From contig CP064994.1 of NCBI GenBank assembly GCA_016699975.1, positions 1,222-65,221 of the forward strand: a DNA stretch of 64,000 bases. The letters are read 5' to 3'. A program made the position numbers and the translations under genes. Source of the DNA: Candidatus Moraniibacteriota bacterium. Lineage in GTDB: Bacteria; Patescibacteriota; Minisyncoccia; Moranbacterales; UBA1568. This document shows, piece by piece, positions 26,075-40,592 of the stretch; the first letter of the stretch is position 1, and the number at the start of each line of letters is the position of its first letter. The notes beneath the pieces were generated by a model, which saw only the letters and a list, made by a program, of their open reading frames with translations, did no database searches and was not told where the DNA came from.

Positions 26075-26105
26075 TGGGAGATTCCCTATAGATATAAATA
26101 ATGGG

Positions 26106-26253: not shown

Positions 26254-27104
26254 TCACTCAAATCTCAAACTGTCCAGAAGATGATCAAAGCTCTCGCTCT
26301 CGATTTTCTTAAGGTCATCTTGAGTATACTGAGCCCTCTCCTCTGGTCTGACATAATGTTGCTTGTAGAGAACAAGAGATTTTTCCTTCGCAAGAGGAAT
26401 ATTCACTTCCATCCACTTTGAATACGGGTCTGGAGTATTCTCTCCGAAAGAAATGAAAGCCGAACGACCTCCAATGGTTTTCTTCAATGTAAATCGAAAA
26501 TTTATTGTAGGCAGTATAAAGAGGTCTATTTGAGTAGAACTTGCAGTCGGATAGGATATCCCACCGAGTGAAGACAGAGATGCTTTGGGAAATCCAGGAA
26601 AGTTTCCTGGATTAATATACTCATCAAAAACTTTTTTCATTTCTTCATATTTCATATTTTTGAGCATCTCCCAATTGAAGTCGAGATATTGCCCTGAAAG
26701 TTCCGGGTTTTCTTTGATGTTTCCAAAATAATTTGTGGCGAAAAACTCCCTCAACTCCTCTTCCGTCATCTCTCTTTCTCCAGAATTTCTTGTTTCTACA
26801 AAGTAGGTATCGGGAACTTCAAAGGAGAAGGTGATTTGCCCATCGTGGATGGTCACTTTTTTGTACGGACCTTCAATATCTTTAACGCCCGTGATTTTAC
26901 TTTCAGGAAGCACTTTGTTGTAGCGTTCGAATTCCGCTTGCGAGAAAGTGCTGCTTGAGGAGATTCTTGTACAGATTCGGCACGATTCACTGCTTGTGAA
27001 GCGCTCTGTTCTTTTCTGCGTTCGTATCGGAAGAGTACGGTGAGCAGTATTCCTCCAGTTACGAAAAGAGCGAAAATCACGATGGCGGTTTTTGTTGGTT
27101 TCAT
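26254..27104 (-). CDS. hypothetical signal-anchored protein, copy 2 of the shared-promoter/leader family; frameshifted (ORFs 26853..27104 + 26254..26913)
   Basis: N-terminus MKPTKTAIVIFALFVTGGILLTVLFRYERRKE matches the 1111..1782 N-terminus MKPTKIAIISFALLITGGILITTFLQYEYRKK. The body (26254..26913, GTG-initiated in another frame) has no similarity to the body of copy 1. Confidence 0.45.
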
Positions 27105-27253: not shown

Positions 27254-27925
27254 TCACTCGCGTTCGGGTTGGGAATGGCGGAGCAGGAAAAGTGTAAAGA
27301 GGTACGGGATAACCGTGACGAGCGAGAAGAGAAACGAGAGAAGAAGAGCATGAAGCATCCATGCCGGACTCGCGAAATGGAGCGCCGTTTCGTGTATCAC
27401 AGTGAGCGGTTCGGTCACTACTTGCCAGCTATTAAGTCGCAAGAACCGTCCCAAATAGACTCCCACTCCTGAGAGACAAACGCTGAGGAGAAGAAAAAAA
27501 TCGGAGAGCATGCTCCCCCACATTCGCTCAAGGGTTGCTTTCATCGATACGAGAGAGAGGATTCCGAAAAGTATCCCAGCAGAGGCAAACGATCCCACTA
27601 AGAGAAAGTCGTAGAGGAAGAAAATCGAGGAAGCATATTCCCACGGAAGATGGATGAAGTCTGTCACGATATAGGGCGCATTGGGAAAAAAGAAAAACCA
27701 CACCAAAAGAATCGGCGCATTCCACAAGAAAGAGAGTGGATGCTTTTTCGAAATCCACTCAAAGAAGGAGGCCACAATATATGGAATAGCGGCGAGTCCA
27801 AGGTTCCACGTCAAGAAAAAGTATCCGTCGGTTTCCGTTGCAAGCATGCGTATCCCCAAGAGAAGAAACGCGATACTCGAAACGAAGCGAAGAAGCGCGT
27901 TCAAAAACGAGAGACGAGAATCCAT
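27254..27925 (-). CDS. DUF1361-family polytopic membrane protein
   Basis: 6-7 TM helices and the hallmark PNAPYIVTDFIHL motif of DUF1361. Last gene of the long minus-strand glycan operon. Confidence 0.5.
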   Translation of the reverse strand: MDSRLSFLNALLRFVSSIAFLLLGIRMLATETDGYFFLTWNLGLAAIPYIVASFFEWISKKHPLSFLWNAPILLVWFFFFPNAPYIVTDFIHLPWEYASSIFFLYDFLLVGSFASAGILFGILSLVSMKATLERMWGSMLSDFFLLLSVCLSGVGVYLGRFLRLNSWQVVTEPLTVIHETALHFASPAWMLHALLLSFLFSLVTVIPYLFTLFLLRHSQPERE

Positions 27926-28138
27926 ACGAAGAAAGTCGACAATGGAAATACCATTGTATCACGGCGGGAGAGGAGCAAAAGAAGTTATTCCTTCAGCTCG
28001 TAAATATCCGCGAATGGATATGAATCGACTTTGGTATAGCGCTCCAAAAATCGCGGATTATTTTTAAGAAGACGCCAGGTAGAATCACTGTCGGAATAGG
28101 AGCGGACGACAATAAATCGCGCATATTCGTCGGGCGTA

Positions 28139-29572
28139 TCAATCGCGCGGCGATAGTATTCCCCGTTCCTCGCGAATAAACCGTTTCATGGGAAGACCAG
28201 ACGAAAAAATAATGGAATCGTGCGAAGCAGCCGATATGAGAATATATCCGTCGCGCCCTCCTGCGTGCTCGCGAAGCCACGTCGAAACTTCGGTGACATT
28301 TTTTTGACTTGATCCCACACGACCGTCGTCGATGGTCACCGCGTCCGCGCTCGAAAATTGAAAGAAGAAGACGAGCGCGAGCGTCCCCACAAGAACAGAT
28401 CGAATCCCGGCCATTCGCTCCATCAAGAATCCTGCAAATATGGCGACCGACGGCATCATCATGATGCCGTAACGAATATTAAACCACGTGTCTCCCGAAA
28501 GCCCCTGAATAAAAAGAACGGAGTGTCCCAAATAGAGCGCGAGAATATTGAAGAAGAGTGGCGCAAAAAGGGCGAGTGAAGCGAAGCGCGCATTTCTCGA
28601 AACACGCCGATCAAGAAAGAGAAGAATGGTTCCGACAAATCCGAGCGCGAGGACCCACGCATTGGTATTATACGCGAGCGCATAGAAATACATCTTGGCT
28701 GATAAGAACCAATCACCTTTTGTCGGAAGCATGCCCGCAGACTGAAGATCCTGTTGCTGCGTGTGTGCGGAATAGGGGCCAAACGCGAAAAAGAGTGGGT
28801 CGCCAAAAATGAGGAGATTCCACAACAGCCACAGAAAGACACCGAATCCACCGAGCGTCGCGAACAAAATGAACCGCCCTTCCGCCTTCCGGTATCCGCC
28901 CTCCTTGAAACTCGAGAAAAAAATCATGAGGGAAGAAAAGAAGAGAAGAAACCATCCGTCGTAGCGCACAAGGGTCGCAAGCATCACAAAGAACGACGAC
29001 AGAATGAGAAATGACAAAATGCCACGCGTGTAGAAGAGAAGAAGAAAATATGCGGCGGCAGTCATCGTTCCCAAAAGAACAAGTTCGGTCATCGCGGTCG
29101 ACTGAAGATAGAGGATATTGATGTTCGCCGCAAAGAGGAAAACGCCCGTCAATCGGCCGACCCTCCCGACGCCAAGCTCCTTCAGGAAAAGATGAATAAG
29201 GACACCCGTCCCCACAAAAGAAATCATGGACCACAAGGCGCCCGCGAGTCCCGAGTGCCACATGAAATCATTCCACACCGTGAGCGTCATAAGGAGATGC
29301 GTAAGCGGAAGCCACACGCTTCCAAGTTGAGCAAATCCGGGGCTCAGTCCCTCGACGACGCGCCGCCCGATATCAAGATGGGAACGCGCATCGTTGTACG
29401 CAAGGCCGAGGCCGTTTTGATAATAGAAAACGAAGGCGATGACGGAGATGATCGACAAGACAAGAGAAAGAATCGAAACCTCGTATCGATCGAGAATCAT
29501 TTTGAGTCGCCCGAAAAAGCGAGGGGTGATATTTTCTTCCATATGAAAAGAATTGGAGGGTGAAATATTCAT
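28139..29572 (-). CDS. large polytopic membrane protein, putative GT-C fold glycosyltransferase (ArnT/PMT/YkcB-like)
   Basis: 477 aa, ~11 TM helices, N-proximal extracytoplasmic loop with acidic motif (NDARSHLDIGRR). Architecture matches lipid-linked-sugar GT-C transferases. Assignment rests on topology and context, not a strict motif. Confidence 0.45.
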   Translation of the reverse strand: MNISPSNSFHMEENITPRFFGRLKMILDRYEVSILSLVLSIISVIAFVFYYQNGLGLAYNDARSHLDIGRRVVEGLSPGFAQLGSVWLPLTHLLMTLTVWNDFMWHSGLAGALWSMISFVGTGVLIHLFLKELGVGRVGRLTGVFLFAANINILYLQSTAMTELVLLGTMTAAAYFLLLFYTRGILSFLILSSFFVMLATLVRYDGWFLLFFSSLMIFFSSFKEGGYRKAEGRFILFATLGGFGVFLWLLWNLLIFGDPLFFAFGPYSAHTQQQDLQSAGMLPTKGDWFLSAKMYFYALAYNTNAWVLALGFVGTILLFLDRRVSRNARFASLALFAPLFFNILALYLGHSVLFIQGLSGDTWFNIRYGIMMMPSVAIFAGFLMERMAGIRSVLVGTLALVFFFQFSSADAVTIDDGRVGSSQKNVTEVSTWLREHAGGRDGYILISAASHDSIIFSSGLPMKRFIREERGILSPRD

Positions 29573-31158
29573 ACGCGTCTCGAAGGAAAAGAAGATTCAC
29601 GAAGCAGTGCGTATAGAAAGAGGAACGCACTCACGACAACAAAAATGAAAAGTGAAACGCCATACGGTATCGCTCCGAAGAATCGGTGGAGCACACTTCG
29701 ATAAAGAAAGGCGGTGGACGTGTTTTGTTCCAAAGCTTGCCAGTTCCTCATCACGGTATACTTTTGTTCCTTTCCTGAGAGCGCTTCAAGTTCCAAGACC
29801 TGCACTTTTGGCGGATTGGCGATCGACGTAATAGCGCCGAGCGTATTCACCGAAAGAGAGAACGAGAAGAGCAAAAAGAACGCGGCCAGAAAAATGAACG
29901 ATCGCTTCCTTGATTCGAGCGCAATGGCGATTCCAATCGAGAGCATCGCATACGCCGGGATAAGGTAGCGCGATCCGAATGCCCATCCGCCCCACGGATC
30001 GCTCCACAATGAGTAGAGAAGAAACGTGAGCAAAGAAGTCCCCAAGAGAACGCGAAGTATTCCATACTCTTTGCGCACAAACAGCACGGCAAAACCAAAG
30101 AAGCCCAAGAAAATAACCGGCGTAAACCACAGCGCTCCGCGATCCGGACTTGTCAGATGGATCAGAAATCCATTGAGGAGCGCTCTCGTTTGAAAAAATC
30201 CGACAGCCGTTTTCTCCGACGCTTCTCGTTCAAGTCGATCGCGCGGAATTTGGTTCGGGTCCGTCGAAAGCGGAGAGCCGTCGGAAGAGATTGCAACAAC
30301 CGAAGGAAGTGTTCCCGATAACGTGAATGGATTCCCGTTTGCGAGGGAGTTGTACCACAAAAAAAAGAGGAGCGGGATCACGGCAAAGAATCCCGAGAAC
30401 AAAAGGAGGGGTCGGAAGGACACGCGCACACTCTCCGTATCCGAAGTGCGGAAGGAAAGGATTCGAGACAAAGCCCAGAGACCAACCGGCAAAAAGAGAA
30501 TCGCATTCGGATTGTCGAGCGCGATTCCCGAGACGAGCAGGAAGAACACCAACGCAAGCGACAGAAATCCTCGATTCGAGAGAAGGAGGAGGATAGCACT
30601 GAGGAGAAAGAGCACCGAAAAGTGGTGCTGATAGAGCGTCGTTGCGTAAGGAAATGCGGGCGTCGCCAAGAGAAATGTGAGCGCGCCAAGGGACGCGGCA
30701 TTTTTTCCGGCACCAAGGCGAAGCGCAATCGCGCGGATGAGAAACGCATTGGCAAAAGCCGCAATCGCTACAACGAGAGTGGCACCGACCACGGAGGCAC
30801 CAAAGAACTTCCCGATCAAATATCCGGGAATAAGGAGGAATGAAAGAAGCGGCGCAAAAAGCGACACGAATTTTCCATCCGGATTCCGCGCAAGGTCCGG
30901 TGTTGCAAGCCGCGCAACCGGAAGCGAAAAAAAGAGTGAACGATCCTCAACCACAGAGTAAAGAAGCGCGAACCGCCCACGTTCCGGTGAAAGCTCAAGC
31001 GGGCCATGATCTTTCCAAACGGGCGTCACAAGTTCCTGCGCTGTTGGATTTCCCGGAAGCCCGCGCACCGAGAAAAGAAGTGCGATCGCGCACACGAATC
31101 CGAACAAAAAGATGGAAAGTCGAGAGTATTTCATACGAATGTAAAAAGCATGTACCAA
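29569..31158 (-). CDS. large polytopic membrane protein, second putative GT-C-like glycosyltransferase
   Basis: 529 aa, ~13 TM helices, first loop ELSPERGRFALLYSVVEDRS (DE-like motif), large C-terminal periplasmic domain. Stop-start overlap with 28139..29572. Confidence 0.45.
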   Translation of the reverse strand: MVHAFYIRMKYSRLSIFLFGFVCAIALLFSVRGLPGNPTAQELVTPVWKDHGPLELSPERGRFALLYSVVEDRSLFFSLPVARLATPDLARNPDGKFVSLFAPLLSFLLIPGYLIGKFFGASVVGATLVVAIAAFANAFLIRAIALRLGAGKNAASLGALTFLLATPAFPYATTLYQHHFSVLFLLSAILLLLSNRGFLSLALVFFLLVSGIALDNPNAILFLPVGLWALSRILSFRTSDTESVRVSFRPLLLFSGFFAVIPLLFFLWYNSLANGNPFTLSGTLPSVVAISSDGSPLSTDPNQIPRDRLEREASEKTAVGFFQTRALLNGFLIHLTSPDRGALWFTPVIFLGFFGFAVLFVRKEYGILRVLLGTSLLTFLLYSLWSDPWGGWAFGSRYLIPAYAMLSIGIAIALESRKRSFIFLAAFFLLFSFSLSVNTLGAITSIANPPKVQVLELEALSGKEQKYTVMRNWQALEQNTSTAFLYRSVLHRFFGAIPYGVSLFIFVVVSAFLFLYALLRESSFPSRRV

Positions 31159-31170
31159 TAATAAGAGAGA

Positions 31171-32175
31171 TTAGAAACCATTTTTCGAAAGCGAATACGA
31201 AAGCAGTTTCGTATCACGAGAAAAAAACTCGAGAAACTCTGCTAGCCCTTTCGCGCGATCTGAAGACAGAGTCGAACTCTCAAGAAGAAGTGCCTGAACG
31301 AACGAAAAAGCGAGAAATGCGATACAGCGCGACTTTTCGGAAGGTGTCATTGAAAAAGAATCAAGAAACCGTTTGGTAGAATATAGTCCCCATATCGGAA
31401 ACGCCTCAAGAACAATGCGAGCCACTTCCAATTCCGGATTCGACCGCACGCATAGTTCGAAGTCGAAGACCGAAAGCGTCTCACCTTTCACCGCCATATT
31501 CCGCGCGAAAAGATCCCGATGCGTCACAACGAGACGAGACGGGGCAAATACTGCTTGAGACGCGTTCAAAAAGAAGAGTTTTCCGAAGGAGAGAAGCGTT
31601 CGAAAAAAACGCGGAAAGAGAACAAGAGAAATTCCCCAATAGATCGGAAAGGTGACGAGCGCGAGAGAAAACGGGCGTCGCGCAAAAGAAGATACCGCGT
31701 CATCGGGAATCGCGCGCAGGGAGAGAATAGCGACCCGAAGCGCCTCCTGTTCGAAAGCGATGTCTTTGGAAACCGGCCGCCCGGAGTGAAAAGACCGCGC
31801 TATCGTTATACGCCCACCTACCTCTTCGAATGAGAGGAGGCGCGGGAAAAAAACCCGTCGAAATCTCGAGGACTCGAGGACGACAGACATGCCGCCTATA
31901 TGCGACAGCACATGCGCTTCGTTCCTCAGGTGAAAAAAAGAAAGTGTTCGAAAGCGAAACCGGAGTCGTTTCAAGAGGACCGGTGTTTGTCCATGAAAAA
32001 AGATGCCGACCGTTTGTCTCCCATTTTTCTTTTGCTCTTTAAGAAGGCGCCTCGAAGAGGCGGGGAATTCTCGAAATTCCCGCTCTGGAAGTGAAAGAGG
32101 AAACAAGAGCTCAAGGGCGCTCCCGATCGCGCCTCGCAGACTTTTTCCAAAAGTGAGTGCTCCGATATTTTTCAT
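31171..32175 (-). CDS. protein-kinase-like fold phosphotransferase (APH/choline-kinase/Kdo-kinase-like)
   Basis: VTHRDLFARNMAV (HxDLxxxN catalytic loop) followed by LSVFDFELCV (DFE/DxD metal-binding). No Gly-rich loop recognised, so the substrate is unknown. Confidence 0.5.
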   Translation of the reverse strand: MKNIGALTFGKSLRGAIGSALELLFPLSLPEREFREFPASSRRLLKEQKKNGRQTVGIFFHGQTPVLLKRLRFRFRTLSFFHLRNEAHVLSHIGGMSVVLESSRFRRVFFPRLLSFEEVGGRITIARSFHSGRPVSKDIAFEQEALRVAILSLRAIPDDAVSSFARRPFSLALVTFPIYWGISLVLFPRFFRTLLSFGKLFFLNASQAVFAPSRLVVTHRDLFARNMAVKGETLSVFDFELCVRSNPELEVARIVLEAFPIWGLYSTKRFLDSFSMTPSEKSRCIAFLAFSFVQALLLESSTLSSDRAKGLAEFLEFFSRDTKLLSYSLSKNGF

Positions 32176-32227
32176 ACGTCAGTTCTCGTTGATACGATTC
32201 TCGATGAAGCTTTTTCAAGTGGCATTC

Positions 32228-33052
32228 TCAAAACCATGACGGCAGCCACCGCTTCACCGTGGCGCGAAACACAATGGCACTCGTACTGAAAAGTGTTTCA
32301 CATTCCGAAACAGTGTGCGTGCGATCGACACCAACGCGCGGCACTCTGAAAGGATCAATCCCTGGCTCCACGAATCCGTCATCCATAGAAAGCGCGAGCA
32401 AAAATCCAGCATCTCGAAGCGCGCGGCGCACAACTTTTGTTGAACGTCCTCGCGGATACGCGAAGAAGCGAATGGGAACTCCCACTTCCGACTCAAGCAT
32501 GCGCTTTGCACCAACAGTTTCCTGAGCCACCTGCTTTGAAGATAAGGCCCACATGTCCCGGTGAGTCGCACTGTGGCAACCAATCTCCCAACCTGATTTG
32601 GCGAGAAATCGCAACTCCTCCGTACCGAGAAACGCGCGATCAGTTCCGAGTTCGCTCGTGTCGGCATGCGCGCGATCGGCAAGTGGAAAAACACTGGGTG
32701 TCACGCCGGAATCGCGAAGAAAATCGAAAACGTCGAGAATATCTCGGTAACCATCATCAAAACACAAGACGAATGAAGGTTCCGTAAAAGGTGCCTCTCC
32801 TGAAATGTGTCGCGCGAGTTCGGACAGAGACCGAGGTTTTCGTTTCCGGAGAAGACGAGTAATTTGTTGTTCGAAAGAAGCGCGATCGATACTATACCGC
32901 CAAGAATCTTCCGCAATACTGTGATAGGCAAAGACAACGACCCGCGGTTCGGGAATGCGAAAAACACGATCGAAAATTGTGAACATTCGATAGGCGATTC
33001 TTCGAAGACCAGAAAAAAGTTTCGTGCGAAATGACATAGTGTCCTTCCTCAT
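32228..33052 (-). CDS. polysaccharide deacetylase (NodB/CE4 family)
   Basis: VLCFDDGYRD (motif 1 D-D), CHSATHRD (His motif), FFAYPRGRS and the beta/alpha barrel order of CE4. Confidence 0.75.
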   Translation of the reverse strand: MRKDTMSFRTKLFSGLRRIAYRMFTIFDRVFRIPEPRVVVFAYHSIAEDSWRYSIDRASFEQQITRLLRKRKPRSLSELARHISGEAPFTEPSFVLCFDDGYRDILDVFDFLRDSGVTPSVFPLADRAHADTSELGTDRAFLGTEELRFLAKSGWEIGCHSATHRDMWALSSKQVAQETVGAKRMLESEVGVPIRFFAYPRGRSTKVVRRALRDAGFLLALSMDDGFVEPGIDPFRVPRVGVDRTHTVSECETLFSTSAIVFRATVKRWLPSWF

Positions 33053-33960
33053 TAACGGAGTCGTTTCGAAGTCGTTGAAACGTCCCAGAGTTCTTCGGGC
33101 GCGGGCGCAAAGAACGAGCGGATTCGTGTCGTCACAACGACGATCATATACGAGATTGAGCGAATCGGATGGCGAAAAAGAAGCGGCGAAGCAGAAAGGG
33201 CCCCACGAAAAAATGCGCTGACAGGAATATACATCTCTTGTTCGACGAGCTCTTTGGGAAATTCCTTCATGAGCGTTTCTTTCCCGCGAGAGAATCGAAA
33301 GCTTTGCTTATCATTGTCGGCGCTGGTCGCTGGCACCCGCAAAAAGAGTACCGCGTCTTTCACATACGCGTAGCGAAAATTTCGAGCGATGCAGGAGAGA
33401 TACGAATATGCGTCCTCCCCCACGCTCTGCGTAAATCGAAACTGAGCGAAGAACCTTCGCGAAAATGCACGGCACGCTCCATGACAGGTATATATGGTCT
33501 TCCCGCCCCGTATTGATTCGAAGAGCGTGTTTTTCAGGAGAAATCCTGTCTCGAGAATTCGTTCGAAACGGCCTCGTGCCGACATCGGACGAAGATCAGA
33601 CGAGGTCAATTCGGCTTTCCCTTCACGAATCGGCCGTGTCAGTTTTTCTAAAAATCGATCGTCATCAATCCGCATATCAGCGTTGACGAGCACGAGAACA
33701 TCGCTCTTCGTTCGTTCGAGAATCACATTTTGTCCACAGGCAAGCCCTTGTCGACCCGGTCCCTCGATCAATTCCACACGGGCATCTCGCAGCGAACGAA
33801 CAATTTCATTCGTTCTATCGGTGCTGCCATCGGAGTAGACAAGAATTTTCTCAAGCGAAAATTCTTCCGCGCTCTGCCGGAGAAGATCTCTGAGGAGAGC
33901 GCCGATATTTTCGGCTTCGTTGTAGGCCGGAATCCCGACCGTGACCGTAGCGTGTTTCAT
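33052..33960 (-). CDS. GT2-family glycosyltransferase (GT-A fold)
   Basis: VTVGIPAYNEAENIGALLRDL...YSDGSTDRT...VNADM..., the canonical GT2 N-terminal region and DxD. Confidence 0.75.
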   Translation of the reverse strand: MKHATVTVGIPAYNEAENIGALLRDLLRQSAEEFSLEKILVYSDGSTDRTNEIVRSLRDARVELIEGPGRQGLACGQNVILERTKSDVLVLVNADMRIDDDRFLEKLTRPIREGKAELTSSDLRPMSARGRFERILETGFLLKNTLFESIRGGKTIYTCHGACRAFSRRFFAQFRFTQSVGEDAYSYLSCIARNFRYAYVKDAVLFLRVPATSADNDKQSFRFSRGKETLMKEFPKELVEQEMYIPVSAFFRGALSASPLLFRHPIRSISYMIVVVTTRIRSFFAPAPEELWDVSTTSKRLR

Positions 33961-36900
33961 ACTTCGTTGTGCTTTGCGAATACCGCAGAAAACAATTGCT
34001 TACTCGACACGTCCCAATCGAAACCTTCCGCCCACTCGCGCGCCTCACGATTCATGCCGAGTCGAAGTTCCCGATCGCGAATAAGCAAGAGCATTTTTTC
34101 TGCGAAGAGATCGACATCACCGTACGGAATCAAAAACCCAGACTGAGTGTTGACCGAATCTCGCAGCCCCGGCACATCTGAGGCAATGACCGGCGTACCG
34201 CATGCATTCGCTTCGATTGAGACAATACCCCACCCTTCCATTTTTGACGGATTCACGAGCATCCATGCTTCCCGCAAAAGCCGCTTTTTTATTTCTTCGG
34301 AAACATATCCCAGAAATTCCACATGATTTGTTCCGAGTCGAAGTTCTTCGTAGGCGAGGTATTTAAGAGCCTGCTCTTCGTCACCGTTTCCTGCAATAAC
34401 AAGTCGCGCTTCAGGGCGCTCGGATCGTACCTGGTGAAATGCGCGAAGCAAGATATCAACCGACTTGTAAGCTTTGAGTCGGCCAAGATAGAGAATGAGC
34501 GGTGTCTCTGACTTTCGTTCCGAGGGTACAAATTCGTCGAGCAAAACACCGGGGTGGACAATGCTTACGCCCGCTTTTCCGAGACCGAGCGCGAGCAAAT
34601 CCTCACGACTTGATTCCGAAACAGTCACAAATGGAACATTCGCATACACAATCGGCATGAGCGTTCCCTCAAGAAAGTTCGCGAGGTGAGCGAATGGTTT
34701 CGGGAGATACTGAAAAAAAATCGTTCGATGCACGTGATGAAGAAGGCACACCACCGGTTCCTTCACATAGAGTGGTGTAAAAAATGGTATGCCGTTTTCG
34801 CAATCAATAATCACGTCGTAGCGTCCGCGAAAGCGCGTGAAGTAATACACAAACGCCCACACATACACCAGATAAAATCCGCCGCGGCGCACGATATGAA
34901 TACCGTCTCGGATCTCATGCCGGGGAAGTCGGCCATCATTTCCGGAAAACAGAGTGACAAAATGACCATCCGCGACCCACCGCTTCGCCATTTCCTCTAT
35001 ATACACTTCCGCGCCGCCGCCGTGTTGATGTTTTGTATCGCGCCAGTTCACGATGAGAACGCGTTTCCCGCCTGTGAGTGGTGAGAGTTCCGGGATCTTC
35101 CCGCGAAAGGCATCAAGAAAATCTCGAACACCGCGCTCGAGGAATCGAAATTGCGGTTCGAAAAGATGAAGAAGTTCGAGTATCCCCCACCCCACAAGTC
35201 CCGAAAAAAAGACGGCGTGCGCCACCGCTTCGAGAGAATCGTGGAAGAAAACGATACTCATCACTTCGCCGATCGCCACCAACAACGAGACTCCCACGAA
35301 AATATATTTTTTCTTCGCAAGCTGATACGTCACGATGAGCGTCGAGAGTGTGAAAAAAGCAGCAGAGAGGGTTGAGATGAGGAGGAGGGGTGCCACTTCC
35401 CGCACTTTTTCTCCAAAAAGAAATGGCGCAAAAAATTCTCCGAAGAGTCCGAAAAGAAGTACTCCCAGAATGCACGCCGCCATCGAAAACGCGTAGAGTA
35501 TTCGGAAAACATACCGTGTTCCTTTTTTGAGACCCTTATTTCGTCCAACGAGGGTCATCATGAACATGTTGGGCATGGTTCCGAAGAAGAAAACGATTTT
35601 CCCAACAAGCGACAGGAGCGCGTACCGACCAGCATCGTATTCTGGCAGAAAGTGTTTCGCCAAAAGAACATCGACGGTCGTAAACGTGGCCGTCGAAAGC
35701 GTGAGGAGAAGTGCCGCAACAAAAAACGTGAACGGAAACGCTTCTCGACTTTTTTCAAAGAGGAGCGCGCGCGATACCGAGGGAATGAAAAATCCCGATG
35801 CGACCGCTGCAACAAAAACACTCGCAGGAATAGAAAGATAGGCGAACTCCGCGTATCCGAAGGTCACAAACAAGAAAGCAACAAGAAGTTTCGTAAGCGC
35901 CTCGACAAAAGAAATAACTCCTGCCGCGCGAAAGCGAAGCGATCCTTGTAAGAATCCGAAGTTGCCAAACGAAAAAAGTCCGAGTGAGAGAAGCGGCGCA
36001 AAGGAAATGAGGAGGAAGAGATCGTCGACGTGAAAGAATCGCGCGAGCGTCGGCACGAGAAACAACCACAGCGCACTCAAAAATATCGAAACGATAAGTC
36101 CCGTTCGGAGAACCGAGGCCCACAGTGTACGCGCCTCTTTCGCTCCACACTTCGCGGAAAGAAACGATGTCTCGCGATTGATCATCGTCGAAAAGGGACT
36201 GATGAAAATGAGTGCGAGATACCACAACGTATTGAGGAGCGCGACTGCGCCGAGCGCTTCAAAGGGGAGCGTCCGTCCCAAAAATGCGCTAAAGGTGAAA
36301 TTAAGAACACTGGTCGCTATGATCGCCATCGCAAAAAATCCTTCAGGAGAAGTGAGAAGGCGAAGCATTTTTTGAAAAGAGCGTAAAAGAAAGGTGGGCG
36401 AAGAACTTACCGGAGCCACCTCGGAAATCCGTTCGGGAGACAGAATATTCTGCGACAGAATCGGTGACAAAGATGGGTCTCGTTGCGACAAAGGATCGGG
36501 CGAAGGAGGCAAATCAGCAACTGATTCCTTTCGTTTTTTCTTGAGAAGGTGAAGTCCGTGTGTCGTTTTTTCCCAGTAGTGCGGTTTCACGAGAAGCTGA
36601 TACGCCGCCATCATGGCTGCAAGAGAAACGAGAAGCCAGTAAAAAGGAATGAGAAAAACCCACTTCATGAGCGACCACTTTTCTCGTTTCGCACAGCCGA
36701 TCATGTAGTAGTACATCGCAAGAAAGTTTCCAAAGACGAGCGAAACGACCGCCATATAAAAGACGACACTCGGGTAGAGCGACTCGATTGCGCCCCCTAC
36801 GGAATCGCGAAATGTAAAATAGAGAATCGTTTCGATCCACAGGATAGGATTAATGAGCATGAAGGCGATTTTTCCGCCGACGATGAACTGAAAGAGAAGA

Positions 36901-38915
36901 GCATGAACGCCGTTTTTTCGGAAGAATTCTCCGGGACGACGCATGTGGACGAGATACGTTTGCATGTATCCTTTGATCCAACGGGAGCGCTGTCGAATCC
37001 AATTCCCAACTTTGCTGTTCGCTTCTTCGAGCGTAACGGAATCAATGATCGCCGTGCGAAATCCACGCGTGAAAATTCGCGCGCCCAAATCGCAGTCTTC
37101 CGTCACATTAAACGGATCCCATCCCTCAAGAGCGAGTAAATCTTCGCGACGAAAGTGATTGCTCGTGCCGCCAAGTGGAATCGACGTCGAAACCGACTGA
37201 AGCGCCGGAAGCATGACATCGAACCACAGCGAATACTCCGCCGTAAAAAGACGTGTCAGAATATTTTGATCGACATTGAAATAGTTGAGTTTCGCCTGAA
37301 GACACCACACCGTTCTCGGAAGCGTCTGAAATCCGAGATACGCCTTTTTCAGCTGAGCGGGATCGGGAATATCTTCCGCGTCATAGATCACCACATATTC
37401 CCCCGTCGCAACCGAAAGTCCATAGTTACAGGCTTTTGGTTTTGTCTTCGGTTCCGAATGCGGGACAACCACGATCTTCACAAACGAAGGGAGGGCCATA
37501 GCACGCGCCGCCTCAATCGTTTCACGATCGTTTTCTTCAAGAAGAAGAAGTGCTTCGAGTTTCTCTTTCGGCCATTCCATTTTCTCTATCGCTTCGAGAA
37601 ATCCCGGGAGCACGTGCGCTTCTCGATAGAGTGGGCACAGAACGGAATAGGTGGGAAGCGAATCGTCCGAAATGAGAGCAAGTTCTTCTTTCGTAAAAGA
37701 AATTTCGGGCGGTTTCTTGAGACTCCGCGAGACGAAGAAGAGATTAAAGAGTACATCAAAAAAGTAAATGCCGGTCAGGATGGCGGTAACCGTAATAAGC
37801 GTCCCGAGCGGAAAGAAAACGAGGCCACCAACAAAGAGAAAAACCAGAAGGAAAAGGAGGGCCTTTTGCCACAAAAGAAACGTGTGCAGCGCGGAAAATT
37901 CATGGGACAGCGTCGAGTGGGTAATGAATCGCTTCCTCGCATGAAGAACGCCCGCACCAATCATGCTCCGACCTGAATTCCCCTGCTCGGCCGGCATTAT
38001 GTGAAACGGAAGAAGGGAGCGGAATCGGAGACGAATTGCATTCCAACCAATCTCTCGGATTGCTTTCCCGAGAACGATTTTGGATTCGCCGGCCATGCGC
38101 TCCGAGAAAGTGATATCGTGCCCTCCAATGTGGTAGCCGTAGTGACGCGCGGTACGCAAAAATTCGAGATCGAATGTCCACGGATCGGGCGCGATGCGCA
38201 CTTCGCGCGCAATGGTGGAACGAAAAACCTTGAGGCCCGATTGTACGTCAACATCAAATCCGTGAAGAAGTTTCGAAAACACGAAAGCGAATCCGCGACT
38301 CGACAATTTCCGCACAAAACTCGTTTCACGTTCGACTCGATTCGCAACCACGATATCGAGTCCTTCGGAGAGTTTCTGCACCATGGCGGGAATCGCTTCG
38401 GGTGGATACTGCAAGTCCGCATCGATCATCGCTATCATCTCGAATCGAGCATGTTCGAATCCTTCAAGAATCGAAAACGCTTTTCCGGGTCTCCCCTTTT
38501 TGACATGCAAAAAAACCGGGAATTGGTTTTTCAACTTCTCGATTTGGTCGGTGGTTCCATCGCTTGAGTGATCATCGATCACGTGAATTTCATATTCAAT
38601 TCCCGCGCCACGAATCGACGCGTCAAGACGACGGATGAGTTCCGCTATATTGCCCGCTTCGTTCAAGGTCGGTACTAAGATCGAAAGGCGTTTCTTGTCC
38701 ATCATATTTTTTGCGAGCTGCCGTTTCGCTTGAGTAAGGAAAGACTCTTCCTCGTACGAAGAACGAGAAAGAGTCCGTCTTTTCCCCAAGCGACCAGCGA
38801 GTGGCCCGTACATAAATGCGCGAAATGTCAGCCTAAATGAACACTTGAATTTTGTCAAGAGGACGGGCCCATTGTGACAAGCTCGAGAATCAAGTACGAT
38901 AACGAGAGCAATCAC
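33957..38915 (-). CDS. giant multidomain glycan-synthesis protein: GT2 (Dpm1/GtrB-like) + processive membrane GT2 synthase (QxxRW) + MOP/Wzx-like flippase domain + GT4
   Basis: Single uninterrupted 1652-aa ORF. aa ~75-320: LSILVPTLNEAGNI...IDDHSSDGT...IDADLQYP. aa ~400-760: TM helices then YSVLCPLYREAHV...YDAEDIPDP...TEDCDLG...QRSRWIKGY plus C-terminal TMs. Then a P/S-rich linker (KKKRKESVADLPPSPDPLSQRDPSLSP). aa ~800-1230: 12-14 TM helices with polysaccharide-biosynthesis/MOP-like composition. aa ~1250-1652: GT4 with EGWGIVSIEANACGTPVIASDVPGLRD. Probable true start is MMDKKR (~38705). Confidence 0.75.
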   Translation of the reverse strand: MIALVIVLDSRACHNGPVLLTKFKCSFRLTFRAFMYGPLAGRLGKRRTLSRSSYEEESFLTQAKRQLAKNMMDKKRLSILVPTLNEAGNIAELIRRLDASIRGAGIEYEIHVIDDHSSDGTTDQIEKLKNQFPVFLHVKKGRPGKAFSILEGFEHARFEMIAMIDADLQYPPEAIPAMVQKLSEGLDIVVANRVERETSFVRKLSSRGFAFVFSKLLHGFDVDVQSGLKVFRSTIAREVRIAPDPWTFDLEFLRTARHYGYHIGGHDITFSERMAGESKIVLGKAIREIGWNAIRLRFRSLLPFHIMPAEQGNSGRSMIGAGVLHARKRFITHSTLSHEFSALHTFLLWQKALLFLLVFLFVGGLVFFPLGTLITVTAILTGIYFFDVLFNLFFVSRSLKKPPEISFTKEELALISDDSLPTYSVLCPLYREAHVLPGFLEAIEKMEWPKEKLEALLLLEENDRETIEAARAMALPSFVKIVVVPHSEPKTKPKACNYGLSVATGEYVVIYDAEDIPDPAQLKKAYLGFQTLPRTVWCLQAKLNYFNVDQNILTRLFTAEYSLWFDVMLPALQSVSTSIPLGGTSNHFRREDLLALEGWDPFNVTEDCDLGARIFTRGFRTAIIDSVTLEEANSKVGNWIRQRSRWIKGYMQTYLVHMRRPGEFFRKNGVHALLFQFIVGGKIAFMLINPILWIETILYFTFRDSVGGAIESLYPSVVFYMAVVSLVFGNFLAMYYYMIGCAKREKWSLMKWVFLIPFYWLLVSLAAMMAAYQLLVKPHYWEKTTHGLHLLKKKRKESVADLPPSPDPLSQRDPSLSPILSQNILSPERISEVAPVSSSPTFLLRSFQKMLRLLTSPEGFFAMAIIATSVLNFTFSAFLGRTLPFEALGAVALLNTLWYLALIFISPFSTMINRETSFLSAKCGAKEARTLWASVLRTGLIVSIFLSALWLFLVPTLARFFHVDDLFLLISFAPLLSLGLFSFGNFGFLQGSLRFRAAGVISFVEALTKLLVAFLFVTFGYAEFAYLSIPASVFVAAVASGFFIPSVSRALLFEKSREAFPFTFFVAALLLTLSTATFTTVDVLLAKHFLPEYDAGRYALLSLVGKIVFFFGTMPNMFMMTLVGRNKGLKKGTRYVFRILYAFSMAACILGVLLFGLFGEFFAPFLFGEKVREVAPLLLISTLSAAFFTLSTLIVTYQLAKKKYIFVGVSLLVAIGEVMSIVFFHDSLEAVAHAVFFSGLVGWGILELLHLFEPQFRFLERGVRDFLDAFRGKIPELSPLTGGKRVLIVNWRDTKHQHGGGAEVYIEEMAKRWVADGHFVTLFSGNDGRLPRHEIRDGIHIVRRGGFYLVYVWAFVYYFTRFRGRYDVIIDCENGIPFFTPLYVKEPVVCLLHHVHRTIFFQYLPKPFAHLANFLEGTLMPIVYANVPFVTVSESSREDLLALGLGKAGVSIVHPGVLLDEFVPSERKSETPLILYLGRLKAYKSVDILLRAFHQVRSERPEARLVIAGNGDEEQALKYLAYEELRLGTNHVEFLGYVSEEIKKRLLREAWMLVNPSKMEGWGIVSIEANACGTPVIASDVPGLRDSVNTQSGFLIPYGDVDLFAEKMLLLIRDRELRLGMNREAREWAEGFDWDVSSKQLFSAVFAKHNEV

Positions 38916-38931
38916 TTTTCTTCTTCACATT

Positions 38932-39462
38932 ATGGAAATATCTCCCGCCAAAAAACTTCGCATCGGTTGGTTTACCTTTACCTGCTGCGAAGACAGCACC
39001 GTTATTTTTACGGAAATCATGAACGATCATTTCGAAACGTGGCGAAAAATACTCGATATCCGACATGCGCGTGTCCTTCAAACAAAAAATGTGCTTGACG
39101 AACTCGACGTCGCCTTCGTCGAAGGAGCAATCAACTCCGACGAACAAGAATCCCGCCTCAAAGAGATTCGCGCGAAATCAAAAAGACTCGTTGCAATTGG
39201 AGCCTGCGCGTGTACCGGCATGCCGAGTGCCCAGCGAAACGCATTTCCACCAGAACTCAAAGATAAAATTCAATTTCTCCTCGACCGGTTTCATCAGGGA
39301 GAAAGGGTGAAGAAACTCGATGAAGTCGTCACGGTCGATGATCGTGTCCCGGGCTGCCCTATGACAGAATCCGCTTTCCTCGCCGCCCTCGAAAAGATGC
39401 TCAAAGAGTTCGAAATTCCTCTTCCTGAAAAAGAACCAGAAACATCAGAAAAGAATGTCTGA
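38932..39462 (+). CDS. [NiFe] hydrogenase small subunit, minimal NuoB-like form (proximal Fe-S cluster only)
   Basis: 176 aa: FTCCEDS ... AFVEGAI ... AIGACACTG ... VPGCPM, the four Cys motifs in the order of the Oxidored_q6 / hydrogenase small-subunit N-domain. No C-terminal medial/distal cluster domain. Confidence 0.7.
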   Translation: MEISPAKKLRIGWFTFTCCEDSTVIFTEIMNDHFETWRKILDIRHARVLQTKNVLDELDVAFVEGAINSDEQESRLKEIRAKSKRLVAIGACACTGMPSAQRNAFPPELKDKIQFLLDRFHQGERVKKLDEVVTVDDRVPGCPMTESAFLAALEKMLKEFEIPLPEKEPETSEKNV

Positions 39463-39723: not shown

Positions 39724-39762
39724 AAACCCCCTTCGTTTCAAGAAAAACGAAGGGGGTGTTTT
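39724..39762. terminator. bidirectional rho-independent terminator (CCCCCUUCGUUU-caagaa-AAACGAAGGGGG)
   Basis: aaaacccccttcgtttcaagaaaaacgaagggggtgtttt lies between the convergent hydrogenase small-subunit gene (+) and the 39768..40592 gene (-). Confidence 0.6.
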
Positions 39763-39767: not shown

Positions 39768-40592
39768 CTAATAGGGGACGGGCGGGAAAAGCGCCCCATG
39801 TATCTTCCAGGCAATATCCATTCCGCGTCCTCCCAAGTACGTTTCACTCATTCCGTGACAGGTCCAATCGTCCGGTGAACACGGGACATTTGCATTTGCC
39901 GGAAGCGCTCCGGTAACGTCACGAATGGTATTTATCACCATATCGTTTTCCCCGGTAACATACCCGAGGGAAGGAGCGACACTTTCCGGAGTCGCAATGG
40001 CGAGAACCGGGAGCCGAAGTTCTCGCGGAAGCAAGAGATTTGCTTGCGTCGCATAGAAGTTCCCTTGGGAATGCGGTACAACTATTCCTCTGCCGTTCGT
40101 TCCCGCATACGTTTCGACATGCTGCCGGAGATCCCCGTCCACTATGTAGAAAATCGCACTCGAAATGGTCTTTGAAACAGTAAGCTCCACTTCTTTGAAC
40201 CATTCGGGGACAGGAATGCCGTGCGATCGCGATATCCATTCCCAGAAATGCACGGTATCATCGGAAGAGGACTGGACAAACGCTTCCAGAAGATCAAGCC
40301 AGGCTTTCTCTCTCTGGTTATGCGCCACACGAAATTCCACACAACGCATTTCGTCAGTGACGAATTGTTGATCCGGAATTGTTTCAAGGTAGGAAAGGTA
40401 GGTGGCTTTTAATCTCTGCTTTGTCATTTCTGCTGAGAAAGCATCCACATACATCCCATTTACATAGAATACTGTCGATTTGTTCGCAATAGCAGAACAA
40501 CGATCGGCCCCTTGCGCAACTGCGATTTCCTGTTGACACAAGACAATCAACAATAAAACAAGAAGACGAGAAAACCATAAAACAGCTTTCAT
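39768..40592 (-). CDS. secreted protein, possibly alpha/beta-hydrolase (lipase/esterase-like HSQGN nucleophile elbow)
   Basis: Signal peptide MKAVLWFSRLLVLLLIVLCQQEIAVAQG. VVPHSQGNFYA resembles a GxSxG-type nucleophile elbow. Function is a weak inference. Confidence 0.4.
   Translation of the reverse strand: MKAVLWFSRLLVLLLIVLCQQEIAVAQGADRCSAIANKSTVFYVNGMYVDAFSAEMTKQRLKATYLSYLETIPDQQFVTDEMRCVEFRVAHNQREKAWLDLLEAFVQSSSDDTVHFWEWISRSHGIPVPEWFKEVELTVSKTISSAIFYIVDGDLRQHVETYAGTNGRGIVVPHSQGNFYATQANLLLPRELRLPVLAIATPESVAPSLGYVTGENDMVINTIRDVTGALPANANVPCSPDDWTCHGMSETYLGGRGMDIAWKIHGALFPPVPY

Follow-up and report, generated by a model that had tools for sequence, protein, structure and literature searches.

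Organization of the gene cluster

The window, a stretch of 64,000 nucleotides from Candidatus Moraniibacteriota (CPR/Patescibacteria), harbors a genuine co-directional gene cluster, in which large minus-strand ORFs run without interruption across positions 27254–38915. An ORF scan yields seven ORFs of at least 200 aa, and the public record likewise lists seven consecutive proteins (QQS20955–QQS20960 and DUF1361): a giant glycosyltransferase/flippase fusion, a small GT2, a CE4 deacetylase, a kinase-fold phosphotransferase, two GT-C-like membrane proteins (ORF5 and ORF6) and a DUF1361 protein. An earlier note on this DNA had recognized the co-directional run and its junctions, but had counted eight genes and placed the start of the giant gene at 38915. 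That position merely marks the limit of the longest GTG-initiated ORF; the most likely start is ATG 38705, from which the annotated 1582-aa product (33957–38705; 100% identical to QQS20960.1) is read and which has an equivalent in most giant homologs.

All three overlapping junctions lie where they had been reported: the giant and GT2 genes share an ATGA at 33957–33960, the GT2 and CE4 genes share TAATG with a 1-base overlap at 33052, and ORF5 and ORF6 share an ATGA at 29569–29572, the last provided that ORF6 starts at ATG 29572 (NCBI) and not at ATG 29542 (Logan gene call). The CE4 and kinase genes are separated by 52 bp, and the kinase gene and ORF5 by 12 or 36 bp; the probable start of ORF5 is ATG 31134, which is also the one chosen in an independent assembly and gives a protein of 521 aa.

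Strong bidirectional hairpin terminators (12–14 bp stems) sit solely outside the cluster, at 26104–26135 (12–14 bp), the first strong stop signal downstream, and at 39726–39757 (13–14 bp), where the hairpin insulates the cluster from upstream minus-strand genes; nothing comparable was found inside. Promoter-like sites within the cluster are not enriched (7 found versus 10.3 expected). The sole plausible site for a cluster promoter would be the divergent intergenic region at 38706–38931, between the giant gene and a plus-strand NiFe-hydrogenase small-subunit-like gene, which holds a TTGACA at 38852–38857 followed, after 17 nt, by a poor −10 element (TAGGCT).

Could the genes be mere neighbours, expressed and working independently? 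A weak hairpin at 27939–27957 in the spacer ahead of DUF1361, and terminator-like matches in the region at twice the expected frequency (47 versus 23), would fit such a view, the latter all being short stems in T-rich coding sequence. Against it stand the three stop/start overlaps, an order and strand conserved in 80 loci from many Patescibacteria lineages, fusions between member genes, and the confinement of strong terminators to the flanks, and we consider it very improbable. The overlapping codons, the conserved gene order and the fact that no strong terminator interrupts the cluster make it likely that the genes act as one functional unit, as the earlier note had held.

ORF6 (27985–29572) is annotated as a 477-aa protein (28139–29572; QQS20955.1), truncated by a frameshift at 28160–28170, where two G's are missing from G-runs on the minus strand (GAGG-AAC-GGGGAA here versus GAGGGAACGGGGGAA in an independent assembly). 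The final ~60 codons can still be read, in a different frame, down to a TAA at 27985–27987; therefore, the 213-bp "gap" before DUF1361 is mostly coding, the true gap is ~60 bp, and the repaired protein has ~530 aa. An independent, 99.3%-identical contig (L002, from SRR15021097) carries two extra G's at the site and an intact ORF6. Compared with a 99.3%-identical strain, codon differences number 21 synonymous and 5 non-synonymous, a ratio that speaks for the reading that we prefer below. An intact 519-aa cluster member (P0476) also exists, and further housekeeping genes of the window show the same kind of split. The frameshift in the record counts against the reading that we prefer below, though it is probably an assembly error.

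The DUF1361 membrane protein (27254–27925; 223 aa, PF07099 at 125.8 bits) is a same-strand neighbour. Only the window and L002, which represent one and the same species, have it downstream of ORF6, and in 67 of 80 other loci a different gene of ~425 aa takes its place. The Pfam call made previously is thus borne out, but conservation of the locus does not extend to DUF1361.

A four-module fusion protein

The earlier note had named the first gene product a giant synthase. It does contain a synthase-type GT2, but the name undersells a four-module fusion that begins with a polyprenyl-phosphate sugar synthase. More than 120 full-length homologs (49–70% identity) share its Pfam set, a hydropathy scan detects sixteen hydrophobic segments, and all three transferase modules have catalytic motifs that do not vary among 28 homologs.

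Module A (aa 1–240; 37986–38705) is predicted to be a GT2 polyprenyl-phosphate sugar synthase of the DPM1/ArnC/GtrB type. Its sequence matches in the PDB are DPMS (5mlz; 88.8 bits, E = 1.4e-24), ArnC (9hwj/9bhc) and GtrB (5ekp), and in its DADLQYPP motif Asp95, Asp97, Tyr100 and Pro102 are invariant, the remaining residues being kept in 24–27 of the 28 homologs. Enzymes of this class move a sugar from a nucleotide sugar to polyprenyl phosphate and so make the donor that GT-C enzymes need.

Module B (aa 340–715; 36561–37688) appears to be a membrane-embedded GT2 of the cellulose/PNAG/chitin-synthase type (PF13641, PF13632), preceded by two TM helices (aa 282–324) and followed by three hydrophobic segments. 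Its D, DAED, TED and QRSRW motifs are invariant in 28/28 homologs, and it aligns over its full length to CelA (64.7 bits), PgaC (53 bits) and XrtG-associated synthases, at scores to be read against NCBIfam equivalog cut-offs of 422–699 bits. By itself, the module looks like a self-contained synthase-translocase with no need of a flippase or GT-C enzymes, an observation that counts against our preferred reading.

Module C (aa 785–1200; 35106–36353) is a polytopic block with 11 hydrophobic segments, which we assign to the MOP (Wzx/MATE) flippase superfamily through its relatives. Among 18 homologous blocks (30–58% identical), PF01943 (Polysacc_synt) matches six, PF01554 (MatE) five and PF13440 (Polysacc_synt_3) two, with a best E-value of 6.5e-11, and precomputed Pfam entries of giant homologs agree. 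The window's own block has no Pfam match, and its profile returns only spurious GPCR matches from the PDB; this lack of a family match also counts against the preferred reading.

Module D (aa 1213–1582; 33960–35069) is a predicted GT4 enzyme of GT-B fold (PF00534 at 136.7 bits), in which both glutamates of the EX7E motif are invariant among the 28 homologs. Its nearest PDB matches are PimA (2gej/4n9w) and PimB' (3okc), a generic similarity in that MshA, GlgA and BshA reach comparable scores.

A conserved core around a variable cassette

Relatives of ORF6 occur in at least 465 species genomes. The comparison with CPR glycan loci that the earlier note had suggested was made on the 80 fetched loci, and reveals a conserved order of giant, variable cassette and GT-C pair. 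ORF5 adjoins ORF6 in 70/70 related loci, and of the 57 loci that reach 9 kb, 47 have the giant gene upstream in the same orientation. The core, a four-enzyme fusion plus two GT-C membrane proteins, thus keeps its order in hundreds of genomes of ultrasmall bacteria; a literature search found no description of it.

The intervening cassette measures 1.9–7.6 kb. Small GT2 genes are present in 45 of the 47 loci (85 genes in total), CE4 in 24, small GT4 in 16 and the kinase in 10. Gene fusions tie the parts of the cluster together: GT2 is fused to an ORF5-type protein in two cases (P0183 and L048), and CE4 to the kinase in three loci (L058, L071 and L081) and in 19 of 60 kinase representatives, while fusions of the kinase to GT2 and to GT4 are also found. 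In one further locus (L016), a stand-alone module-B GT2 adjoins ORF6 paralogs.

In the window, the cassette consists of three genes. The small GT2 (33052–33960; 302 aa, PF00535 at 78.9 bits) has no TM segment by hydropathy scan and appears soluble. The CE4 polysaccharide deacetylase (32228–33052; 274 aa, PF01522 at 70.4 bits) carries FDDG and HSATH motifs and weakly matches PgaB, HfsH, NodB and IcaB. Both calls, like that of DUF1361, lie above the Pfam cut-offs, as the earlier note would have expected. The third gene encodes a fast-evolving APH/choline-kinase-fold phosphotransferase (31171–32175; 334 aa, HRDLxxxN...DFE), which at 22.8 bits falls 0.4 bit short of the PF01636 (APH) cut-off of 23.2. 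Its family clearly has the kinase fold, as judged by matches of 48/60 members to APH, by invariant His219, Asn226 and Asp238, and by a family profile that matches 176 kinase sequences in the PDB.

In the hydropathy scan neither CE4 nor the kinase has an N-terminal hydrophobic segment, and CE4 has no hydrophobic segment at all. Both therefore look cytoplasmic, and deacetylation and phosphorylation would occur inside the cell. Moreover, CE4 is missing from 23/47 loci and the kinase from 37/47, so neither can be core chemistry; both are accessory. The earlier note, which had made deacetylation and phosphorylation steps of the pathway as such, needs to be changed in this respect.

The model of the earlier note can be put as a synthase-dependent exopolysaccharide system of the PNAG/chitin type, in which module B polymerizes and exports a poly-HexNAc that CE4 partly de-N-acetylates, the kinase phosphorylates and the GT-C proteins decorate outside the cell. 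The invariant motifs of module B, its full-length alignment to PgaC and XrtG-associated synthases, and the CE4 matches, together with the occurrence of CE4 in about half of the loci, speak for such a model. The PNAG, chitin-oligosaccharide and holdfast systems (PgaC/PgaB, IcaA/IcaB, NodC/NodB, HfsH) also combine a membrane GT2 bearing QxxRW with a CE4 deacetylase, and NodB and HfsH resemble the present CE4 in having no signal peptide. However, module B scores far under the equivalog cut-offs, CE4 and the kinase are optional and would work in the cytoplasm, like NodB and HfsH, not on a secreted polymer, and the model leaves no role for the invariant module A, the MOP block and module D; polyprenyl-phosphate sugar synthase, MOP and GT-C components have no place in those systems. 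We regard the model as unlikely.

The GT-C pair and the proposed pathway

The AF2 model of ORF5 (29569–31134; pLDDT 92.1) was compared with the PDB using Foldseek. The top matches, at probability 1.00, are ALG12, Pmt4, ArnT, STT3, ALG9 and AftB (TM 0.32–0.48), followed by EmbB, AftD and ALG3 (0.96–0.97). The protein has 970 homologs, and its family alignment shows 57 invariant columns. ORF6, with a mean column identity of 67% among 63 homologs, was represented by the AF2 model of the 79%-identical P0242 (pLDDT 80), for which the top 37 PDB matches are all GT-C-type folds, with TM-scores up to 0.61. TM-scores of the two models to solved GT-C enzymes are modest, at 0.3–0.6.

Neither protein has an HMM match above threshold in Pfam or NCBIfam, including PMT_2; the best score for the pair is 37 bits to NCBIfam LA_3751/2, against a cut-off of 200. 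These low scores and the modest TM-scores count against the reading that we prefer below. The earlier note had staked its GT-C and kinase calls on HMM thresholds, which formally neither passes. The calls stand because of structural and profile evidence alone: the AlphaFold models match GT-C folds only, and on this modelling we conclude that ORF5 and ORF6 have the GT-C fold. To our knowledge, every characterized GT-C enzyme takes its sugar from a lipid-linked donor, on the outward-facing side of the membrane.

The matches also bear on protein glycosylation, whereby the giant and the cassette transferases would make a lipid-linked oligosaccharide, the MOP block would flip it, and ORF6 and/or ORF5 would serve as oligosaccharyl- or mannosyl-transferases that modify S-layer proteins, pilins or further proteins of the cell surface. 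By E-value, the best matches of ORF6 are the protein-modifying GT-C enzymes STT3, DPY19, AglB and Pmt4; its model has a small C-terminal α/β domain behind the last TM helix, a Wzx-like block occurs together with cytoplasmic transferases, and the window also contains genes for type IV pili and sortase. However, that domain spans just ~100 aa, the ORF6 sequence contains no WWDYG-type motif, and the best TM-scores belong to ALG12 (0.55/0.61) and ArnT (0.52), whose acceptors are glycans or lipids. The cluster also has no initiating phosphoglycosyl transferase, and module A points to donors in which polyprenyl monophosphate carries a single sugar, rather than to en-bloc transfer. Such a role for the locus seems to us quite doubtful.

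Based on these observations, we propose, with a probability of roughly 0.6, that the locus encodes a three-component-type extracytoplasmic glycosylation machine, widely conserved in Patescibacteria, which uses polyprenyl-phosphate-linked sugars for an envelope glycoconjugate, the final acceptor of which may be a wall polymer, a lipoglycan or a protein. Working from the cytoplasmic side, modules D and B together with the cassette GT2s would build or prime an acceptor glycan that is anchored in the membrane; in the present genome, CE4 would de-N-acetylate a HexNAc in the cytoplasm, and the APH-fold kinase would phosphorylate either an amino sugar or the glycan itself. Module A would make the polyprenyl-phosphate sugar donor, the MOP block would flip the donor and/or the lipid-linked glycan, and ORF5 and ORF6, possibly paired, would move donor sugars to the acceptor outside the membrane. 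Most likely, then, the cluster builds a cell-envelope sugar polymer with lipid-linked sugars. Of the earlier interpretation, the glycan role, the single unit and the GT-C fold are retained, whereas CE4 and the kinase as central steps and the membership of DUF1361 are not; that the product is N-acetylated is a supposition. Among the seven cluster genes and ~40 other large ORFs, a scan found neither an initiating phosphoglycosyl transferase nor a Wzy polymerase, an ABC exporter or an LCP ligase that would point to a primary acceptor pathway, which counts against the proposal.

A missing phosphoglycosyl transferase would be expected if the primer were a membrane lipid. In a lipoglycan pathway resembling that of mycobacterial PIM/LM/LAM, the PimA-like GT4 and perhaps module B would glycosylate a putative membrane glycerolipid in the cytoplasm, the MOP block would flip the glycolipid, and the two GT-C enzymes would extend it outside using the polyprenyl-phosphate sugar of module A. 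This overlaps our preferred explanation, the acceptor being the sole difference. PIM/LM/LAM and arabinan are essential envelope glycoconjugates, and GT-C extension from polyprenyl-phosphate sugar donors, which the locus fits, is the logic of LM/LAM. Like their assembly (PimA/PimB', Ppm1, PimE/Mpt/Emb/Aft), the locus combines cytoplasmic GT4 steps, with PimA and PimB' the best matches of module D, a DPM1-like synthase of the Ppm1/DPMS class and several GT-C enzymes, and AftB, AftD and EmbB are among the structural matches. Unlike the mycobacterial enzymes, however, the proteins here show no sequence-level membership, and neither the fusion architecture nor the module-B synthase has a mycobacterial counterpart. 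As the GT4 similarity is generic, the ORF6 model matches PimE only weakly (probability 0.41) and the lipid acceptor is putative, we hold this variant to be tentative and on balance improbable.

Returning to the three-component-type machine, we compared it with other envelope systems. As in O-antigen and capsule loci, conserved machinery genes bracket a cassette of GT2, GT4 and tailoring content that changes from genome to genome; in contrast to these, the present locus shows no sign of an initiating phosphoglycosyl transferase, Wzy, Wzz or an ABC transporter, and the conserved flanks are a multi-domain fusion and a GT-C pair. Three-component extracytoplasmic glycosylation is exemplified by GtrB/GtrA/Gtr*, ArnC/ArnEF/ArnT and GacI/GacK/GacL of group A Streptococcus. 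The combination of a MATE-family flippase, a polyprenyl-phosphate sugar synthase and a GT-C enzyme has been dissected experimentally as such a system, with ORF15/ORF14(MATE)/ORF12(GT136) in Citrobacter (PMC11127046). The present locus resembles these systems in encoding a GT2 polyprenyl-phosphate sugar synthase, a flippase candidate and GT-C-fold transferases together, and the Citrobacter system in that the flippase candidate is of the MOP/MATE type. It differs in that (i) synthase and flippase are fused with two further GT domains in 1582 aa, (ii) there are two GT-C proteins, from families without a Pfam or NCBIfam model, and (iii) no separate primary glycan pathway (Wzx/Wzy or ABC) is seen beside the locus. 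The conserved ends would constitute the machinery and the variable cassette would set the strain-specific structure of the glycan, and the locus seems to belong to the core gene set of an entire bacterial radiation and not to be an optional, serotype-converting add-on.

Gene layout and the interrupted ORF6

The minus-strand glycan cluster comes from a Candidatus Moraniibacteriota MAG and lies on a 1.05-Mb contig. The earlier note had counted eight genes in it, and our ORF scan recovers seven large minus-strand ORFs at 27254–38915: a giant protein (33957–38915 at its maximal extent), a small GT2 (33052–33960), a CE4 deacetylase (32228–33052), a kinase-like protein (ORF4, 31171–32175), two polytopic membrane proteins (ORF5, maximal ORF 29569–31158, and ORF6, 28139–29572) and a DUF1361 protein (27254–27925), with Pfam supporting the small GT2, CE4 and DUF1361 assignments. 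The three stop/start overlaps described before are real (ATGA at 33957–33960, TAATG at 33052 and ATGA at 29569–29572), and the remaining spacers measure 52 bp and 12 or 36 bp. In a consensus scan, strong hairpin terminators, with stems of 12–14 bp, fall outside the cluster only (26104–26135 and 39726–39757), and promoter-like sites show no enrichment (7 observed vs 10.3 expected). Numerous weak terminator-like matches occur within the cluster, all of them short-stemmed and located in T-rich coding sequence. The cluster thus holds up as an operon-like unit, and the original observation is largely right, but its gene count, two start sites and a pseudo-gap need correction.

The annotated start of the giant is ATG 38705, which yields a protein of 1582 aa and is the start position common to most homologs; 38706–38931 is therefore a divergent intergenic region between the giant and a plus-strand NiFe-hydrogenase small-subunit-like gene. 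An independent assembly calls the ORF5 start at ATG 31134, for a product of 521 aa. No Shine-Dalgarno-like motif precedes the cluster start codons at 27925, 29572, 31134, 32175 and 33960; four of these five starts read CGTATG and the fifth AGTATG. In the public records (giant, QQS20960.1; ORF6, QQS20955.1, locus tag IPL87_00135), the membrane proteins are annotated as 'hypothetical protein' and the fusion as plain 'glycosyltransferase'. Exact-sequence look-ups with the window CE4 and giant protein matched no contig on record.

The window copy of ORF6 is 477 aa long, compared with ~540 aa in all homologs, and the absent C terminus can be read in a different frame as far as a TAA at 27985–27987. 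Such a truncation could reflect either a biological pseudogene or an indel error in the assembly. A 6.8-kb contig from a separate sequencing run (SRR15021097), 99.3% identical to the window, contains an intact ORF6: it reads GAGGGAACGGGGGAA where the window reads GAGGAACGGGGAA, and the G-runs at 28160–28170 in the window are short of two G's relative to that contig. Over the whole cluster, 21 synonymous and 5 non-synonymous codon differences separate the two strains. Five other window genes are likewise split into same-strand overlapping or abutting ORFs (MurA-like EPSP-synthase-family, UvrC, Obg, P-type ATPase and PilB/T2SSE ATPase; 8395–10001, 9775–11102, 18865–19865 and 49550–52137 on the minus strand, and 59079–62091 on the plus strand). 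The Pfam matches of each split pair are consecutive parts of a single profile, and the five cases point to frequent assembly indel errors and not to real pseudogenes. Such errors are clearly present in the assembly, and with five further genes broken up likewise, the ORF6 frameshift most probably belongs among them; given also the intact ORF6 of the independent assembly, we reject the pseudogene explanation.

The four-module giant and the GT-C-like membrane proteins

The giant had been read as one giant synthase, which overlooked its key feature: the protein comprises four modules (A–D), with donor-synthase and flippase modules among them. Full-length homologs of identical architecture number more than 120, at 49–70% identity, and occur in Moran-, Niyogi- and other Parcubacteria. 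Module A (aa 1–240) matches dolichol-phosphate-mannose synthase DPMS (5mlz, 88.8 bits), ArnC and GtrB. Across 28 homologs, the DADLQYPP motif of module A never varies at its two aspartates (D95 and D97), Y100 or P102, and its other residues are near-invariant. Module A has the features of a polyprenyl-phosphate sugar synthase (GT2, DPM1/GtrB/ArnC type) and, as judged by sequence, belongs to the class making polyprenyl-phosphate sugars. Two TM helices precede module B (aa 340–715), a membrane GT2 whose D, DAED, TED and QRSRW motifs are invariant. Its full-length alignments with PgaC and cellulose-synthase models score far below their cut-offs, and it reaches 53.2 bits for the PgaC/IcaA PNAG synthase equivalog, where the cut-off is 422.3.

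Module C (aa 785–1200) follows a Ser/Pro-rich linker and is polytopic, with 11 hydrophobic segments in our scan. The window's own block has no Pfam match, and a module C profile retrieved only spurious orexin-receptor matches from the PDB. Among 18 homologous blocks, six match Polysacc_synt (PF01943), five MatE (PF01554) and two Polysacc_synt_3 (PF13440), all of which are families of the MOP (Wzx/MATE flippase) superfamily; we therefore place module C in this superfamily, as a candidate flippase. Module D (aa 1213–1582) is a GT4 closest to PimA and PimB', and its EX7E motif is invariant.

For ORF5 and ORF6, the proposed GT-C fold is upheld by structural models, although no HMM supports it. Neither protein matches any Pfam family at E ≤ 0.01, PMT_2/ArnT-like PF13231 and PF02366 included, which leaves the suggested PMT_2 membership without an HMM match, and the precomputed Pfam entry is '-' for nearly all of ~240 homologs. 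The one NCBIfam match of ORF5 is weak (37 bits, where the cut-off is 200) and points to a Leptospira family described as 'putative glycosyltransferase', and single-sequence searches of the PDB with ORF5 and ORF6 returned no match. AlphaFold models were built on 60–63 homologs, using a 79%-identical full-length proxy for ORF6, and reached pLDDT values of 92 (ORF5) and 80 (ORF6 proxy). When both models were compared with the PDB using Foldseek, the top of both lists was exclusively GT-C (probability 0.96–1.00, TM-scores up to 0.61), with matches to ALG12, ALG9, ArnT, STT3/AglB, DPY19, Pmt4, AftB, AftD and EmbB. Both proteins are N-in according to the positive-inside rule, and their invariant acidic residues (E63 and D80 in ORF5, and those of YNDARSHLD in ORF6) would sit in the first external loop, as in GT-C enzymes. 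They differ from the STT3/PglB/AglB type: WWDYG is absent from both, and the C-terminal domain of ORF6 spans ~100 aa only.

BLASTP found no similarity between ORF5 and ORF6, and with a profile-profile (hhalign) probability of 9.8% we do not claim them as paralogs. One loop motif, G-D-x-W...F-x-x-R-Y, is common to the two and occupies equivalent late positions (aa ~377–390 in ORF5, aa ~357–366 in ORF6); it reads GDPWGGWAFGSRY vs GDTWFNVRY and is invariant or nearly so within each family.

Conservation of the locus, its variable cassette and its flanks

Peptide patterns from ORF6 located relatives in at least 465 species-representative genomes, and the 80 best of these were fetched. The 80 loci represent lineages of both Parcubacteria and Microgenomates (Moran-, Levy-, Ames-, Gottesman-, Woese-, Davies-, Curtiss-, Shapiro- and Chisholmbacteria, and Paceibacterota), with ORF6 identities of 59–84%, unusually high for a membrane protein. 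ORF5 directly precedes ORF6 in all 70 loci with enough flank. Of the 57 loci extending to 9 kb, 47 have the four-module giant upstream in the same orientation. The giant and the ORF5/ORF6 pair are separated by a variable cassette of 1.9–7.6 kb, in which small GT2s occur in 45/47 loci, CE4 in 24/47, a small GT4 in 16/47 and a kinase in 10/47, besides SDR, DRL-type oxidoreductase and methyltransferase genes. CE4 and the kinase, which had been treated as part of the pathway, are hence not core members of the locus. CE4–kinase fusions are found in three of the fetched loci (L058, L071 and L081), and GT2–ORF5 fusions in locus L048 and in the homolog P0183. Many locus-bearing assemblies (L003–L082) carry TPA titles such as 'uncultured Gammaproteobacteria', 'Bdellovibrionales', 'Pseudomonadales', 'Bathyarchaeia' or 'Eisenbacteria', which look unreliable. 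In one related locus (L016:13459–20559), a second set sits downstream of the main one and consists, in this order, of a module-B-type GT2 standing alone (534 aa), a paralog of ORF6 (532 aa) and an 872-aa ORF6-like protein; this arrangement suggests a specific functional link of module B with ORF6-type GT-C enzymes.

Within the window's cassette, the small GT2 passes its Pfam threshold (78.9 bits). The CE4 call is confirmed by PF01522 (70.4 bits vs a cut-off of 23.1) and by the FDDG and HSATH motifs of the Asp-His-His metal triad. Against PgaB and IcaB it scores at most 36 bits (cut-offs 248–1091). A hydropathy scan detects no hydrophobic segment, at variance with the extracytoplasmic location of PgaB/IcaB-type deacetylases, and the enzyme is therefore probably cytoplasmic, like NodB and HfsH. 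For ORF4, the kinase fold is secure from family and profile evidence, but the gathering score of APH (PF01636) is missed by 0.4 bit (22.8 bits, cut-off 23.2). The APH match is present in 48 of 60 family representatives (E ≤ 0.001; best E-value 1.6e-11). H219, N226 and D238 are invariant among the 60 sequences and D221 and E86 at least 90% conserved, so that the family displays the HxDxxxxN catalytic loop, metal-binding D and N-lobe K/E of APH/choline kinases. A single-sequence PDB search with ORF4 gave no match; with the family profile, 176 PDB kinase sequences were matched across both lobes, at E-values down to 2e-9. The family is fast-evolving, with 22 representatives only at E ≤ 1e-10 among 1.8 billion proteins. 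Because ORF4 homologs are fused to CE4 in 19 of the 60 representatives, and in others to GT2 or GT4, a glycan-related role is predicted. Both the deacetylation and the phosphorylation step are predicted to take place in the cytoplasm. The earlier note had staked its GT-C and kinase calls on HMM thresholds; formally they fall short of these, and they stand instead on fold and profile evidence.

The DUF1361 protein is a genuine family member (PF07099, 125.8 bits vs a cut-off of 25), but not part of the conserved locus: it follows ORF6 in the window's species only. A role as pathway member is rejected since it is syntenic nowhere else among the fetched loci, and so is an origin as a low-GC insertion, given a GC content (0.488) similar to that of the other cluster genes; low GC is confined to unassigned ORFs further downstream. 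In 67 of the 80 related loci, a ~425-aa protein is encoded directly after ORF6 at ~0–100 bp (e.g. L051:11584–12864), carrying a TM anchor at the N terminus and a CarboxypepD_reg match that stays below threshold. It has no PDB sequence match, and a glycoside-hydrolase-like motif was dropped as unsupported. By tblastn the window contains no copy, DUF1361 occupying that position. Between DUF1361 and the strong terminator lie two ORFs on the minus strand that overlap each other and encode 83 and 219 aa (26254–27104, GC 0.40–0.44), the first starting with a TM anchor and neither with a Pfam match above cut-off; they may represent a single frameshifted gene for a membrane-anchored protein.

The locus is flanked by NiFe-hydrogenase small- and large-subunit-like and DUF6390 genes (38932–39462 and 41779–43155, plus strand; 44617–45354, minus strand), with unannotated minus-strand ORFs at 39768–40592 and 40726–41517 between the hydrogenase genes. 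The same flank is seen in a related Moraniibacteriota genome, CP064974.1 (L001:1–3584). Further GT4 genes lie 21–23 kb past the DUF1361 end, near MreB and the MurA-like gene (4448–5503 and 5819–6802, minus strand).

A proposed pathway and its meaning for Patescibacteria

GT-C enzymes are established to use lipid-linked donors at the outer face of the membrane, and one three-component glycosylation system employs a MATE-family flippase (PMC11127046). The locus resembles three-component systems in the donor-synthase class of module A and in its two GT-C proteins, the latter as judged by predicted fold only; the MOP-type block would be the candidate for the flippase. Three-component systems act after polymerization on the glycan of a separate pathway, for which the scanned window ORFs yielded no genes, and the locus may itself constitute the primary pathway. 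A Wzx/Wzy-dependent pathway would share the MOP-type block, but the initiating phosphoglycosyl transferase and Wzy are absent from the cluster genes. The scan, which covered the cluster and other large ORFs of the window, detected neither of these two, nor any ABC exporter or LCP ligase. We read the locus as most likely a system for extracytoplasmic glycosylation from lipid-linked donors, distinguished by a fusion for which we know no precedent and by two GT-C families that lack an HMM model. Of the earlier interpretation, the operon-like unit, CE4, the kinase fold and the GT-C fold remain, but CE4, the kinase and DUF1361 do not count as core.

Based on the match of the donor-synthase class, flippase candidate and two GT-C proteins to three-component logic, we propose a stepwise scheme. 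In the cytoplasm, modules B and D together with the cassette glycosyltransferases would assemble a membrane-anchored acceptor, which CE4 and the kinase would tailor there in the window's strain. Module A would provide the polyprenyl-P-sugar donor, the MOP block would flip donor and/or acceptor, and ORF5 and ORF6 would finish the glycan on the outer side of the membrane, with a wall polymer, a lipoglycan or a protein as candidate acceptors. In this scheme the conserved ends of the locus would represent machinery, and the cassette would set a strain-specific structure.

To our knowledge, CPR/Patescibacteria surface chemistry is essentially unknown. All cultivated members of these ultrasmall bacteria are described as living attached to other microbes. 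Many CPR-enriched protein families are unannotated membrane proteins, with nothing further on point in that survey (PMC6744442), and the passages on Patescibacteria in the lipocone paper are unrelated to the locus. Targeted full-text searches, and searches of the DUF1361 and GT-C literature, found no description of the locus, and the annotation gap is therefore real.

The locus is a concrete, phylum-wide candidate for CPR surface-glycan machinery. It offers two GT-C families without an HMM model and a four-module enzyme with donor synthase–flippase–transferase logic, and its variable cassette could account for strain-level host or phage specificity. Taken jointly, with a probability that we put at roughly one in three, the giant and ORF5/ORF6 might make a signature envelope polymer common to Patescibacteria, a lipoglycan or wall-linked glycan, with the cassette individualizing the surface glycan of each strain. 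If so, ORF5 and ORF6 would found two new GT-C families at the CAZy level, and the giant would be the first known enzyme to unite donor synthase, flippase and acceptor-building transferases in one polypeptide. The polymer would then fill the role of teichoic acids or LAM in other monoderm bacteria, and each strain's own surface glycan could govern host-cell attachment and phage recognition.
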